Shown: in pieces, positions 13,530 through 20,695 of the stretch
Layout of the letters: each line of letters opens with the position of its first letter
Numbering within the stretch: the stretch's first letter is position 1
NCBI GenBank assembly: GCA_019359355.1
Contig: JAHHHM010000015.1
Location: 45,147-109,146 of the forward strand
Reading direction: 5' to 3'
Length of the DNA stretch: 64,000 nucleotides
Origin: Microcoleus vaginatus WJT46-NPBG5
Lineage (GTDB): Bacteria; Cyanobacteriota; Cyanobacteriia; Cyanobacteriales; Oscillatoriaceae
The notes under the pieces: model-generated
Seen by the model: only the letters and a program-made list of their open reading frames with translations
What the model was told of the DNA's origin: nothing
Databases searched by the model: none
Made by a program: the position numbers and the translations under genes

Positions 13530-14768
13530 ATGACTGTATTCTTGCTGACCTTGACAGGTTTCTATTTATATATTGCTTGGCTTCAGTTGGTTTATCTAGA
13601 CTTTCAGAAGCAACGAGACAAGATTGAGTGGCGAGTTCATGTGAATGGAATTAGAGGAAAATCCACTGTTACTAGGTATGTTACTGCGGTGTTTCGAGAG
13701 ACTGGATACCACACCTTTGGTAAAACCACAGGTAGTGCTGCTCGCATTTTGCGTCCTGACGGACAAGACTATGATTTTGGGCGCAAAGGATATCCAAACG
13801 TAAACGAACAGGTCAAAATGGTTAAGGACTTTAGCCGCCAGAAAGCAGAAGCAGCAGTACTGGAGTGTATGGCAGTGAATCCAGTCTATGCAAAGTGGTT
13901 GGAAGAAAAAGTGATGCGATCGCACATTGGCATTATTACTAATGTGCGTTATGACCATCCAGAATATATGGGAGAAACTCTAGAAGAAATTGCTGAATCA
14001 TTATCCAATACCATTCCTGAAAACGGCATTCTAATTACAGCAGAAACGGAACCTCGTCTGCTCAAGATTTTAAAGAAGAACGCTAAGCGCAAAAACTCCC
14101 TGTTGCTTGTTGCGGATGGACAAACAATAGATGTGAGTGATTTGGCAGGGTTTTCTCACTTTGCGATTGAAGAGAACATTGCCATTGGTTATGAAATTGC
14201 TAGGTTGCTAAAAATACCCAAAAATAGAGCCTTAAAAGCTATGCAGAATGCTGTCGCCGATCCGGGTGCTTTCAGCGTTCAATTTATCAAGTTTCAACAC
14301 TATCAAATTGCATGGGCAAATCTCTTTGCCGTGAATGATCGTGAGAGTTTCGTTCAACTCAGTCAAAAGCTATTTAAGCAATATCCAGAACATCAAAAAG
14401 TTGTCATCCTCAACAATAGACATGACCGCCCTGCTAGAGTAGAACTTTTTGCAAACTTAGCTCATGATTTAGAGTTTAATTGGGTTGTCACTCTTGGAGA
14501 TTACGAAGAAGAAGTTAACAGAGTATTTGATCGGGATAAGACGCGAGTTATTAATTTAGGACACTCCTCGAAATTTAAAGGTGCTTCAGCCACACAGCTT
14601 TTAACTCAAATTACTTCAAAAGCAAATTCAGAAAAAATCCTTTTGATTGGAACCGTTAACATCCATACCGATCAAGCTGAACTACTTCTACATTTCTTTG
14701 AAGAACAGCTTAATCTTGAGACAGCAGCTAGCACTGAGCCGGTTGAAGTAGAAAAAGTTGATGTTTGA
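13530..14768 (+). CDS. pgsB: Poly-gamma-glutamate synthetase catalytic subunit (PgsB/CapB, Mur-ligase-like amide ligase)
   Basis: N-terminal TM helix, then VNGIRGKSTVTRYV, GKTTGSAARI, NVNEQ, ECMAVNPVYA, IGIITNVRYDHPEYMGETLEEIAESLSNTIPENGILIT, DPGAFSV and FAVNDRES. These give block-by-block correspondence to Bacillus PgsB. Confidence 0.9.
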   Translation: MTVFLLTLTGFYLYIAWLQLVYLDFQKQRDKIEWRVHVNGIRGKSTVTRYVTAVFRETGYHTFGKTTGSAARILRPDGQDYDFGRKGYPNVNEQVKMVKDFSRQKAEAAVLECMAVNPVYAKWLEEKVMRSHIGIITNVRYDHPEYMGETLEEIAESLSNTIPENGILITAETEPRLLKILKKNAKRKNSLLLVADGQTIDVSDLAGFSHFAIEENIAIGYEIARLLKIPKNRALKAMQNAVADPGAFSVQFIKFQHYQIAWANLFAVNDRESFVQLSQKLFKQYPEHQKVVILNNRHDRPARVELFANLAHDLEFNWVVTLGDYEEEVNRVFDRDKTRVINLGHSSKFKGASATQLLTQITSKANSEKILLIGTVNIHTDQAELLLHFFEEQLNLETAASTEPVEVEKVDV

Positions 14769-15783
14769 GCTTCCGAATACACCTGAAATACATAGATTGG
14801 CACTGAATGTTGGTGCTTTTGTAGCGATAGCTTATAGAGATCGTTATGGAGTGATACCAGGAGGTGTAATTGTTCCTGGATTTATCATTGTTTTATCTTT
14901 ACTATCACCCATTTGGTGCATCACAAGCTTAGCGTTATCTTTTTTTGTTTACGTTATTTACAAACGTTTCTTACAACAAACAAGTTATAAACGTCGTACA
15001 CCGATGTATATTTTAGCGTTCCTTTCTTTAGCAATCGCTAATTCTATAGGACTGATATACATCAAGTTAGGTTGGTTATATCCTTCTTTAGACAGTCTAT
15101 CTGGAACTTTACTACCCGCTGTTATCGCTTTTACCTTAACTAAACAGAAGTTAAATAGAGTAGTCAGAGCAATAATTATTACTACTTTAATTACGTTTGT
15201 TATTCTTCTAGGAATCTACTCGATAGGTGCATCCTTATTTAATATAGATTTTGACACACTGAGAGCTTATTACCCTAGCAAAGAAATTTTGAAAATTCAT
15301 TATCATTTATTCCAATTTTATGTTGCTTTAGGTGTAAGCTATTTAATATATCGGTTCAAAGATATCCGTTCAGGTGGTTATATGGTAGCACCTGTAGCGG
15401 CAGCTCTATTCGTGAAACCAACAAGCGCCATACTTTTTTTGATTGGTTGTATTACCGTCTATTTAGTTGTCCAAACCATTTGTCAACTTACGTTGTTGAT
15501 AGGATTAAAACGCTATGTTGTGGCATTGTTCTTCAGTACTTTGTTTGTCTGGACTACAGAGTTTCTGTTTATAAATCTTGGTTTTGATATCCTGCCCTTT
15601 CAAGGGGGCAATCTTTTTGTAATTATTGCCATGATGTCGTATGTGAATGATAGTATTTTGTATGCAAACAAAAAAGTTATAAATTACATGACTTTGAATA
15701 TACTAACCGCATTAATTGCTCTTTTTGTAGCTAATACGGTATCAGCTTATTTAGTCCCCCTAGCAACTAAAATTTTGCAATAA
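14758..15783 (+). CDS. pgsC: PgsC/CapC-like membrane protein, tandem duplicated (two PgsC modules fused)
   Basis: Residues about 15-150 carry GVIPGGVIVPGFI, YKRRTP and LLPAVIAFTLTKQKL (Bacillus PgsC: GIVPAGLVVPGYL, YGRRKF, IVPGLIANTIQKQGL). The second half repeats the pattern as GGYMVAPVAAALFV, GLKRYVVALFFS, GGNLFVIIAMMSYVND. Overlaps the pgsB stop by 11 nt. Confidence 0.8.
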   Translation: MMFELPNTPEIHRLALNVGAFVAIAYRDRYGVIPGGVIVPGFIIVLSLLSPIWCITSLALSFFVYVIYKRFLQQTSYKRRTPMYILAFLSLAIANSIGLIYIKLGWLYPSLDSLSGTLLPAVIAFTLTKQKLNRVVRAIIITTLITFVILLGIYSIGASLFNIDFDTLRAYYPSKEILKIHYHLFQFYVALGVSYLIYRFKDIRSGGYMVAPVAAALFVKPTSAILFLIGCITVYLVVQTICQLTLLIGLKRYVVALFFSTLFVWTTEFLFINLGFDILPFQGGNLFVIIAMMSYVNDSILYANKKVINYMTLNILTALIALFVANTVSAYLVPLATKILQ

Positions 15784-15798
15784 AAAAGCGAGTTAACA

Positions 15799-19631: not shown

Positions 19632-19864
19632 GGGAGGGTTAAAAAAACTTCCTACCAGCTCAAAGCGAGATTTGAAAAAGATGAATTTGGATTTTCACAT
19701 GCTCTAGAAGAGCTATAGCGATACTTTTTAGAATTTGAACGGGGTGTAGGGAGAATCCCATGCGTAGGGCAAAGCTATGCCCCCTTTTCACAACTTATCT
19801 CTGATCGCCATAAATCGTGAAAGCTATCTCTCACCTGGAGCTTATGTTATGAGGTTACAACAAT

Positions 19865-20695
19865 ATGAAAGGATGGCTATTGATAGCTATAACTACCCTT
19901 CTAGTTCATCTGGTAGTTTATGGAGAACCCTTTTCTCGTAAAGTGACGTCCTTCTCTCACTTGCCCCAAATTTTAGGAGCAAGCAAACCAGTATCGGCAG
20001 GTAGAGAGGCAGCAATTCAAGATAGAACTGACAACAGACGAGAGTTAGAGGTAGTTGAGCAAGTTAATTCATTCCACTCAATGCCGCGTAGCCAAGCAGC
20101 CGCAGTTTTGCTAGATGAAGCAAACCGCGAACTTAACCTTATAAGAACAACTACTTATTCACATAAAACTCAAGTTGATGAAGCAATTGGTCAATTTCGC
20201 TATGACTGTTCAGGCTTCCTGAAATACGCACTCACCCACAGTGTCCCGGAAGCGCTCCATTCTCTCCAAGAGGCAACTGTTCGTCGCCCCCTTGCTAAGC
20301 ATTTCGTTAGATTTATCACATCCTTACCACCAGGAGAGGTAGAAGGTCACTGGAAACCGCTTGAACAAGTTACTGATCTTGCACCTGGAGATATTATCGC
20401 ATGGCTCAAGCCTGCCGATATAGAGTCCGATAATACAGGACACGTGATGATCGTTTGGGGTACTATTCAACAGCATCCCACCCGCTCTAATGAAATTATT
20501 GTCCCTATTATTGATTCAACTGCTATTCCCCACGGGCAAAGTGACTCTCGCTATCAAACAGAAGCAACTGGCCTTGGAACTGGGAATATTATCCTAGTTG
20601 CAGATGAAGCTGGTCAAGCCATTGGTTACCGTTGGTCTAATTCTCATAACTCTCGTAAGCGTATAACCACAGTAGCTTTGGCTCGTTTGGAATAG
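19865..20695 (+). CDS. NlpC/P60-superfamily cysteine hydrolase, candidate gamma-glutamyl polymer hydrolase (PgdS-like position)
   Basis: N-terminal signal/TM segment. FRYDCSGFLKYAL resembles the NlpC/P60 catalytic Cys context (FDCSGFV) and TGHVMIVWG resembles the catalytic His block (GHVGIY). Gene order mirrors Bacillus pgsBCA(E)-pgdS. Confidence 0.5.
   Translation: MKGWLLIAITTLLVHLVVYGEPFSRKVTSFSHLPQILGASKPVSAGREAAIQDRTDNRRELEVVEQVNSFHSMPRSQAAAVLLDEANRELNLIRTTTYSHKTQVDEAIGQFRYDCSGFLKYALTHSVPEALHSLQEATVRRPLAKHFVRFITSLPPGEVEGHWKPLEQVTDLAPGDIIAWLKPADIESDNTGHVMIVWGTIQQHPTRSNEIIVPIIDSTAIPHGQSDSRYQTEATGLGTGNIILVADEAGQAIGYRWSNSHNSRKRITTVALARLE

Follow-up and report, generated by a model that had tools for sequence, protein, structure and literature searches.

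A predicted poly-gamma-glutamate synthase cluster of cyanobacteria contains a gene for an Alg44-like PilZ-adaptor protein that may link synthesis to export across the outer membrane

A stretch of 64,000 nucleotides from the cyanobacterium Microcoleus vaginatus WJT46-NPBG5 (contig JAHHHM010000015.1, positions 45,147 to 109,146; hereafter the window) holds, at 13530–20695 of its forward strand, five open reading frames (ORFs) whose coordinates all agree with the ORF listing (Table 1). They are pgsB, a tandem fusion of two capC units (capCC), a gene for a 571-aa protein that joins a PilZ-like domain to a membrane-fusion adaptor (PilZ-adaptor), a long capA, and a gene for an exported 276-aa protein with an NlpC/P60-type fold. 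An earlier description made from the nucleotide sequence without database searches (the sequence-only reading) had counted four genes here and presented pgsB, a fused pgsC-pgsC and pgsA as consecutive members of a poly-gamma-glutamate (PGA) synthetase operon. The three genes are present, but the order is not as described, since the PilZ-adaptor gene, which had been overlooked, separates capCC from capA. The ATG of capCC overlaps the pgsB stop by 8 nt (a TTG at 14758 in the ORF listing is an alternative start, giving 341 aa), the PilZ-adaptor gene starts 15 nt past capCC and overlaps the TTG start of capA by 13 nt, and the 276-aa ORF follows after the 233-nt gap already recorded by the sequence-only reading. 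If capA starts at an alternative ATG (17532), its product begins with MRQLCIATLSIALLCSGC, which resembles the N terminus of a signal-bearing protein or lipoprotein. The contiguous B-C-A order is broken here by the interposed gene, and elsewhere in cyanobacteria capA is divergent or absent. The PilZ-adaptor gene is the most distinctive feature of the cluster.

PgsB scored 320.7 bits on the NCBIfam model TIGR04012 ('poly_gGlu_PgsB', cutoff 222.7). The rival families that the sequence-only reading had named as the outcome that would count against it scored far lower: 47.8 bits for FolC (cutoff 162.65), 26.7 for MurC and 13.9 for cyanophycin synthetase (cutoff 850). In BLASTP the protein aligned over its full length with CapB of Bacillus anthracis pXO2, an experimentally established reference protein (33% identity over 402 aa, E = 5e-63). 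A hydrophobic anchor is predicted by hydropathy at residues 3–21, ahead of the P-loop NGIRGKST, and the sequence is identical (100%) to an NCBI protein named PgsB from the metagenome-assembled genome (MAG) of M. vaginatus WJT46-NPBG5. CapCC matched PF14102 with 69 bits as a whole and, when its halves were scanned apart, with 54 bits (N-terminal) and 29.2 bits (C-terminal), both above the cutoff of 27, as expected for the fused pgsC-pgsC proposed earlier. The internal duplication is visible through the Pfam model only and was not detected by BLASTP. The N-terminal half is related to pXO2 CapC (27% identity over 149 aa, E = 1e-7), and at least six hydrophobic segments are predicted by hydropathy. 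CapA carries a strong PGA_cap match (PF09587, Table 1), which bears out the pgsA/CapA assignment, and is 26% identical to pXO2 CapA over 383 aa (E = 8e-33). Each of the three Bacillus core components thus has a homologue here that both profile searches and BLASTP detect, in line with the sequence-only reading. In B. subtilis, pgsBC alone yield PGA with a D/L ratio of 5/95, which becomes 75/25 with pgsA (Sawada 2018, PMC6029982). Because pgsB and pgsC suffice there, we assign the polymerase/translocase role to PgsB-CapCC and a modifying one to CapA. By these sequence matches the window very likely encodes a PGA synthase core.

The PilZ-adaptor protein is predicted to consist of a PilZ-like domain in the cytoplasm, one transmembrane helix and an adaptor in the periplasm. 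The N-terminal domain contains both c-di-GMP (cyclic di-GMP)-binding motifs of PilZ domains, RxxxR as R9-Q-H-E-R13 and [D/N]xSxxG as N31-W-S-T-N-G36. In the AlphaFold2 model (predicted local distance difference test score (pLDDT) 78) a beta-barrel at residues 14–92 is followed by a C-terminal helix at 97–111, as in the PilZ topology. Between this domain and the transmembrane helix lies a disordered linker (121–146), and hydropathy gave one hydrophobic segment (150–168). In an alignment of non-picocyanobacterial orthologues both motifs stand at the right spacing in most members; R13, W32 and G36 are invariant, and the Ser is replaced by Gly in two. The Pfam PilZ model matched 10 of 12 orthologues at E up to 0.1 (best E = 7.5e-6). 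From its motifs, the protein is predicted to sense c-di-GMP. The periplasmic part is modelled as a lipoyl-like domain, a helical hairpin of ~180 residues (helices 230–312, 318–353 and 367–413) and a beta-barrel domain (485–557). HlyD_3 matched with 31.9 bits (cutoff 22.2), DevB, RND (resistance-nodulation-division) and HlyD adaptor models matched as well, and there was a weak sequence match to the membrane fusion protein 4kks in the PDB. The top Foldseek matches were EmrA (4tko, E = 3.6e-16), EmrAB-TolC, MacA and MacAB-TolC, and HlyD, with E values down the list to 1e-10, those to MacA and HlyD at probability 1.00; the query was the full-length model and adaptor matches filled the list, and solved PilZ structures were hence outside this comparison. 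EmrA, MacA and HlyD are adaptors that dock onto TolC. The PilZ-adaptor shares with them the lipoyl domain, long alpha-hairpin, beta-barrel and N-terminal transmembrane anchor, but differs in carrying an extra cytoplasmic PilZ domain and in having no major facilitator superfamily (MFS), ATP-binding cassette (ABC) or RND gene among its cluster neighbours.

An adaptor-family profile searched against 1.84 billion representative proteins gave 199 matches at E up to 1e-30. Those beyond the pgs-linked subfamily are PilZ-transmembrane-adaptor proteins of ~540 aa that align from the PilZ domain through the hairpin. Four proteins passed the Pfam PilZ cutoff: P0312 (43 bits) and P0290, P0340 and P0279 (~29 bits each). 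P0279 is a pgs-linked orthologue whose gene adjoins Mur_ligase_M, CapC and 351-aa genes, and the gene of P0340 adjoins those of a family-2 glycosyltransferase (GT2) synthase, GDP-mannose dehydrogenase and ManC, an Alg44/Alg8-like setting. In BLASTP the window protein aligned end to end over ~560 aa, with both motifs in register, to P0312 (E = 9e-37) and P0340 (E = 9e-30), and is therefore a homologue of Alg44-type proteins; the comparison was made with these two, P. aeruginosa Alg44 itself lying outside it. Alg44 is a c-di-GMP receptor and co-polymerase that switches on the alginate polymerase Alg8. It has the same architecture, a cytoplasmic N-terminal PilZ domain (RxxxR, DxSxxG), a single transmembrane helix and a periplasmic membrane-fusion domain, but its partner is a GT2 glycosyltransferase, whereas here it is an ATP-dependent amide ligase with a predicted polyamide product. 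No glycosyltransferase gene is present in the cluster, where the neighbours are PgsB, CapCC and CapA. With 389 aa in all, P. aeruginosa Alg44 is the shorter protein, and it operates with AlgK and the AlgE porin, not TolC; in the window protein the periplasmic part alone is ~395 aa and has the ~180-residue coiled-coil hairpin typical for TolC docking. Among the homologues, two PilZ-adaptor proteins are fused to an alginate lyase domain. These are the non-cyanobacterial Alg44-type proteins P0290 and P0292, in which the lyase domain is C-terminal and one of which has an AMIN domain too; we know of no earlier description of this architecture. A phylum-wide survey stated that the PilZ+HlyD_3 architecture is absent from cyanobacteria (Pereira et al., 2015, PMC4594306). 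Judged by sequence and model, the PilZ+HlyD (Alg44-type) architecture appears to occur in this phylum after all, the family having been hidden by its sub-threshold PilZ scores.

The gene neighbourhood was compared across one genome per species, giving 80 loci, ~43 cyanobacterial and 36 non-cyanobacterial, the latter mostly from Actinomycetota, Chloroflexota and the candidate phyla radiation (CPR; Saccharibacteria and WWE3), with one planctomycete and one member of the Gemmatimonadales. A few misnamed bins (Tatlockia, Chitinophaga pinensis, Asaia bogorensis) with picocyanobacterium-like content were included in the cyanobacterial count. Adaptor calls used hidden Markov models built from the family alignments, and loci with at least 4 kb on both sides were regarded as well covered. 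pgsB and a double capC were adjacent in every locus. Of the 43 cyanobacterial loci, 31 have the adaptor gene, in three gene orders, and of the 26 that are well covered, 22 have it no more than 2.2 kb from pgsB-capCC; it was found in none of the 36 non-cyanobacterial loci. Confinement of the adaptor to cyanobacterial loci fits a role in crossing the outer membrane; most of the 36 other loci belong to phyla that we take to be single-membraned, two-membrane phyla other than cyanobacteria being represented by only two loci. In 41 of the 43 cyanobacterial loci, no ORF up to 10 kb away had both the Walker A and the LSGGQ motif of an ABC ATPase. With an ABC-ATPase-like ORF in two loci only, the adaptor therefore does not belong to a conventional exporter operon, and a place for it in an ABC exporter or in secretion of an RTX (repeats-in-toxin) protein was rejected on synteny, RTX-like neighbours being found in 3 of 43 loci. 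The neighbours of the window's own adaptor gene are pgs genes and include no cognate transporter gene; in the other loci the screen covered ABC ATPases, without profiles for MFS and RND genes.

In the first of the three layouts, seen in the window and in locus L001, the order is pgsB, capCC, PilZ-adaptor, capA and the 276-aa gene. In the second, carried by Chroococcidiopsis, Pleurocapsales, Scytonematopsis, Thermoleptolyngbya and Halothece, pgsB and capCC are followed by a gene for a periplasmic protein of ~347 aa and then by the PilZ-adaptor gene, with no capA within 10 kb. In the third, found in picocyanobacteria, capA is divergent upstream, and the adaptor gene and a gene of the 276-aa family are convergent downstream. 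In Chroococcidiopsis thermalis PCC 7203 the cluster reads pgsB, pgsCC, a hypothetical gene and an 'HlyD family' gene, and lies on a plasmid of 371 kb that is typed as conjugative. In this strain the adaptor has RxxxR and NxSxxG intact. The cluster is followed by genes for a peptidoglycan-binding protein, a metallophosphoesterase and a BamA/TamA-family protein; the possibility that the metallophosphoesterase is a hidden CapA was rejected, as BLASTP gave no real similarity. PCC 7203 is cultured and offers a ready experimental system.

The ~347-aa exported protein, encoded between capCC and the adaptor gene in these clusters of the Chroococcidiopsis type that lack capA, was noted separately. Its invariant motifs are E-x-P-H-I-x-F-D, G-A-H-R-x-A-N-G, T-A-D-V-C and W-Q-I-H-G-F, and it matched neither Pfam nor PDB sequences. 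Its invariant His, Glu and Asp residues led to consideration of a PghP-like zinc hydrolase, for which the same searches gave nothing. It could be an unrecognised metal-dependent enzyme that modifies or hydrolyses the polymer.

Table 1. Positions of the genes, domains and neighbouring features. Positions refer to the window, or to a locus of the genome comparison where one is named.
Feature	Locus	Position	Strand	Description and basis
pgsB	window	13530–14768	+	412 aa; Mur-ligase-like ATP-dependent amide ligase; TIGR04012, Mur_ligase_M
PgsB P-loop	window	13644–13667		residues 39–46
capC-capC tandem fusion	window	14761–15783	+	340 aa from ATG; PF14102 twice
Alg44-like PilZ-adaptor gene	window	15799–17514	+	571 aa; HlyD_3, AlphaFold2, Foldseek
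PilZ-like domain	window	15817–16131	+	residues 7–111; motifs, sub-cutoff PF07238, model topology
Single transmembrane helix	window	16240–16326	+	residues 148–176; hydropathy and model
Predicted periplasmic adaptor	window	16327–17511	+	residues 177–571; model, Foldseek
capA, long form	window	17502–19631	+	709 aa from TTG; PGA_cap
CapA CarboxypepD_reg-like domain	window	17625–17798		residues 42–99; 36–41 bits
CapA PGA_cap domain	window	17859–18674		residues 120–391; PF09587, 193.1 bits
CapA C-terminal extension	window	18819–19628		residues ~440–709, ~270 aa; no Pfam match at E up to 1
NlpC/P60-fold exported protein gene	window	19865–20695	+	276 aa; fold-level identification
C115 of 276-aa protein	window	20207–20209		
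H193 of 276-aa protein	window	20441–20443		
46-aa ORF	window	12659–12799	-	presumed likeness to ISAs1-type transposase C-terminal end
Glyoxalase/VOC N-terminal fragment	window	12915–13034	-	39 aa; E = 0.017
ISAs1-type transposase N-terminal remnant	window	21222–21443	-	73 aa; PF13808, E = 1.1e-6
RTX/beta-helix protein gene	window	22272–25376	+	1034 aa
Phosphorelay cluster	window	35748–46400	+	
REC-GGDEF-EAL gene	window	43364–45136	+	
PCC 7203 cluster	L082	NC_019699.1 342204–347386		C. thermalis PCC 7203
~347-aa protein gene	L002	10503–11549		
~347-aa protein gene	L005	12179–13333		
~347-aa protein gene	L006	12295–13338		
~347-aa protein gene	L009	12300–13340		
~347-aa protein gene	L041	12295–13344		
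~347-aa protein gene	L012	3433–4344		
~347-aa protein gene	L082	11334–12377		
~347-aa protein gene	L087	4341–5396		
Picocyanobacterial pgs loci	L017, L021, L026–L028, L030–L032, L034, L036–L040, L043			Cyanobium, Synechococcus, Vulcanococcus, Prochlorococcaceae MAGs; freshwater

The sequence-only reading had assigned to accessory domains of CapA a part in handling the polymer at the envelope. The N-terminal CarboxypepD_reg-like domain was found, but the C-terminal extension matched no family, and envelope handling by these domains is less well supported than handling through the adaptor gene. The best PDB relative of CapA, 8gq9, has a chain with the name 'Poly-gamma-glutamate synthesis protein' and is probably the lasso-peptide epimerase MslH; CapA also weakly matched NF038314, the NCBIfam model for MslH. 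Including its C-terminal extension, CapA is 54–56% identical to Anaerolinea-type proteins (L045, 50–1114; L047, 6940–8991) and 38–47% identical to picocyanobacterial ones, whereas PgsB shows the opposite pattern, being closer to picocyanobacterial than to Anaerolinea-type sequences. Judging from these identities, capA may have had a separate evolutionary history within the cluster.

The 276-aa protein had been described as an NlpC/P60-type hydrolase, which holds at the level of fold and not at that of sequence profiles. No match to Pfam or NCBIfam models, including NLPC_P60 (PF00877), was obtained even at E = 10, phmmer against PDB sequences gave nothing significant, and the family profile, run on PDB sequences, picked up the DCSGF motif only, below significance (7cfl, E = 0.28; 2xiv, E = 2.6). 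Fold comparison identified a papain-like NlpC/P60 fold, in an AlphaFold2 model whose core has pLDDT >95 and in which Cys115 opens a helix and His193 opens a strand. In an alignment of 36 family members, D114-C115-S116-G117, H193, D217-S218 and H223 are invariant. Residues 1–19 are hydrophobic and are followed by a low-confidence linker to ~75; because of this hydrophobic N terminus the protein is likely exported. The best 120 of its 228 homologues are all 'hypothetical' or nameless and none has a Pfam domain. In 18 loci a family member adjoins the pgs cluster, beside the adaptor gene or capA; in L001 the gene starts 16 nt after capA, and L002 has at the corresponding place an NLPC_P60 gene that Pfam does recognise. 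With PgdS and the NlpC/P60 DL-endopeptidases (LytE, CwlO, MepS) the protein shares the papain-like core, the Cys in DCSGF and a downstream His, and like PgdS it is exported and encoded after the synthase genes. It differs from these enzymes in that its core is a single ~200-aa domain with extra strands and no PF00877 match, and from PgdS in that its family members are unnamed 'hypothetical' proteins also found away from pgs genes. By its slot and its gamma-D-glutamyl endopeptidase fold we infer a PgdS-like activity by analogy; that this enzyme would act on PGA is possible, but we hold it with some doubt.

We favour, as somewhat the better supported view of the cluster, that it encodes a polyglutamate synthase adapted to a two-membrane cell, which exports its product through the adaptor and a TolC-type channel and is probably gated by c-di-GMP. 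In this scheme, PgsB-CapCC would join glutamate into a chain and pass this across the inner membrane. The PilZ-adaptor would place its PilZ domain in the cytoplasm beside the synthase and its adaptor in the periplasm, with the single transmembrane helix between them, and the hairpin would engage an outer-membrane channel of the TolC type whose gene lies elsewhere, so that the nascent polyanion would leave through a continuous synthase-adaptor-channel conduit. Binding of c-di-GMP to RxxxR and NxSxxG would switch on polymerisation or export, as Alg44 does for Alg8. The long CapA, periplasmic or lipid-anchored, would act after translocation, its likeliest role from Bacillus genetics being in the D/L-glutamate content and otherwise in chain maturation. 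The exported NlpC/P60-fold protein may cut gamma-glutamyl bonds, either in PgdS-like trimming or release of PGA or in local opening of the peptidoglycan. The architecture and the conserved gene order make the adaptor a probable export partner; for c-di-GMP control, as read from the motifs, we regard the case as evenly balanced.

Parts of this scheme have known counterparts. With the Bacillus PgsBCA(E) and CapBCA(D)(E) systems the cluster shares an anchored P-loop PgsB, CapC, a PGA_cap CapA and dense packing of the genes on one strand. It differs in that CapC is a tandem fusion of 340 aa rather than a protein of 149 aa, and CapA is 709 aa long, with a CarboxypepD_reg-like N terminus and a ~270-aa C-terminal extension, rather than 411 aa. 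An Alg44-like PilZ-adaptor gene is interposed between capC and capA, no CapD gamma-glutamyltranspeptidase gene and no CapE/PgsE were identified in the cluster, and the host, unlike Bacillus, has an outer membrane. A conduit of XcsA, the HlyD-like XcsB and TolC under c-di-GMP control has been proposed for cyanobacterial cellulose (PMC12430437), and BgsA-BgsB-TolC, also c-di-GMP-controlled, has genetic support for the mixed-linkage glucan of rhizobia (PMC13438883). In both, as here, the gene of a processive inner-membrane synthase lies beside that of an HlyD-like adaptor, and the outer-membrane channel is encoded elsewhere. The c-di-GMP domain is on the synthase and the product a glucan in those systems, whereas here the PilZ domain is on the adaptor and the predicted product is a polyamide.

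Several observations weigh against the proposed scheme, and those that concern c-di-GMP bear on the alternative that fares best. PF07238 spans 100 of 102 profile positions of the PilZ-adaptor N terminus but scores only 18.4–19.4 bits (cutoff 22.5), and a profile of the PilZ-like domain recovered no PilZ chain among PDB sequences. The picocyanobacterial adaptors P0275 and P0276 have kept the N-terminal domain and the gene neighbourhood but have lost both RxxxR and DxSxxG; binding of c-di-GMP is thus not essential for the system to exist. The cluster itself contains no diguanylate cyclase gene. All this would suit a PGA synthase with adaptor-mediated export in which the PilZ-like domain is degenerate and serves as a contact to the synthase, with no c-di-GMP binding and no second-messenger control. 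We consider this unlikely for the window, given that both motifs are kept at the right spacing in most aligned non-picocyanobacterial orthologues, that the pgs-linked P0279 exceeds the PilZ cutoff, and that the REC-GGDEF-EAL gene, 23 kb from the pgs cluster, places c-di-GMP turnover genes in this genome.

The identity of the product is questioned by a second set of points against the scheme. CapCC reached only 37.4 bits on the PgsC equivalog TIGR04011 (cutoff 96.45), and because this cutoff is not reached we regard it as a divergent, duplicated form. With PgsB and CapB only 33% identical, another gamma-linked polyamide would be possible. The structural neighbours of the 276-aa protein that have known substrates all cut peptidoglycan, not PGA. 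A non-cyanobacterial relative whose context was checked has no pgs genes nearby, for which reason a general association of this family with pgs genes was rejected. The ligase could then make something other than free gamma-PGA, be it a different poly-amino-acid or gamma-glutamyl chains on an envelope acceptor, and the 276-aa protein would be an ordinary peptidoglycan endopeptidase. This seems to us quite improbable, since PgsB lies ~100 bits above the equivalog cutoff and aligns with CapB over its full length, the FolC, Mur and cyanophycin synthetase models remain far below their cutoffs, and homologues of CapC and CapA, a combination characterised to our knowledge only in PGA systems, are found together.

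As to the conduit itself, the scanned ORFs of the window include no TolC-like gene, and four well-covered cyanobacterial loci (L024, L025, L029 and L035) have pgsB-capCC without a nearby adaptor gene. A plain Bacillus-type pgsBCA with a PgdS-like gene, in which the adaptor is a passenger from an efflux pump or from type I secretion of the RTX protein, would account for the presence of all three Bacillus components, for the 1034-aa RTX/beta-helix protein, a typical type I substrate, 1.6 kb downstream, and for the drug-efflux and toxin-secretion adaptors among the best structural matches, but is very improbable in view of the position of the adaptor gene inside the operon (15-nt gap, 13-nt overlap), its company with pgsB-capCC in 31 cyanobacterial loci and three gene orders, the lack of an ABC ATPase gene nearby in 41 of 43 loci, the rarity of RTX-like neighbours (3 of 43) and an N terminus that is PilZ-like as in Alg44, unlike EmrA, MacA or HlyD. 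We therefore retain the adaptor-coupled PGA synthase as the preferred reading.

In the 7.7 million articles of PubMed Central (PMC) and in bioRxiv, which leave most subscription journals outside, no report was found of PGA production by a cyanobacterium, a further point against the scheme. Nor was any article found there that connects the synthesis of PGA with PilZ or c-di-GMP. It is mainly from Gram-positive bacteria that PGA synthesis is known in detail, Fusobacterium nucleatum being the usual Gram-negative example. NCBI annotation already names PgsB and PgsC in Microcoleus, C. thermalis PCC 7203, Coleofasciculus, Okeania and others. The remark of the sequence-only reading that pgs systems are no established cyanobacterial trait thus holds for this literature and not for database gene names, and the presence of pgs genes in cyanobacteria alone is not new. 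What the adaptor gene in the cyanobacterial clusters adds is a concrete, genetically testable model for PGA crossing an outer membrane. If correct, it would be the first defined PGA route across this membrane, c-di-GMP control would extend from polysaccharide synthases to a polyamide synthase, and the synthase would be the first one making a non-carbohydrate extracellular polymer to be gated by a second messenger. More broadly, we put forward as a tentative proposal that cyanobacteria from desert-crust Microcoleus to widespread freshwater picocyanobacteria secrete PGA via a tripartite machine not described before, made up of PgsB/CapCC, an Alg44-like adaptor and a TolC-type channel, with a c-di-GMP switch in the non-picocyanobacterial lineages. 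Among the carriers are the biocrust formers Microcoleus and Chroococcidiopsis as well as abundant picocyanobacteria; for these, a polyanion that retains water and binds metals could be relevant to tolerance of desiccation, to aggregation and to the export of nitrogen and carbon. Photosynthetic PGA production would be one application, and the cassette might improve PGA secretion by Gram-negative hosts.

The G+C content of pgsB, capCC and the adaptor gene is 0.34–0.40 (0.27–0.34 at third codon positions), compared with 0.459 for the window and 0.47 for capA. The cluster is flanked by gene debris, the ISAs1-type transposase remnant downstream and, upstream, the glyoxalase/VOC fragment and a 46-aa ORF that we take to resemble the C-terminal end of an ISAs1-type transposase. 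Low G+C of the three genes together with this debris hints at an acquired island. With the differing identity patterns of capA and pgsB and the plasmid location in PCC 7203, the sequence data suggest a mobile, mosaic cluster.

Rfam models at gathering thresholds gave no RNA leader or riboswitch in the whole window; a riboswitch near pgsB was also sought in a permissive Rfam scan of 12500–13700, which returned only a chance snoRNA match. Promoter and terminator scans were uninformative because their counts equalled the shuffled expectation. Beyond the cluster, the gene for the 1034-aa protein lies 1.6 kb downstream. It encodes six calcium-binding RTX repeats and a right-handed beta-helix (Pel9A-like/DUF1565), and proteins of this kind are typical type I secreted polymer-active enzymes. 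Its proximity to the pgs genes is probably coincidental, given the few cyanobacterial loci with such neighbours. The phosphorelay cluster encodes a 1893-aa CBS-GAF-multi-PAS HisKA_2 kinase, two REC-HisKA-HATPase hybrids, a REC-HisKA protein and the REC-GGDEF-EAL protein. The remainder of the window is ordinary chromosomal context, with genes for an ABC-3 transporter, a hibernation factor, LipB, SSB, CobK, a sigma factor, CobO and MoeA, and also for a mannose-1-phosphate guanylyltransferase/phosphomannomutase fusion.

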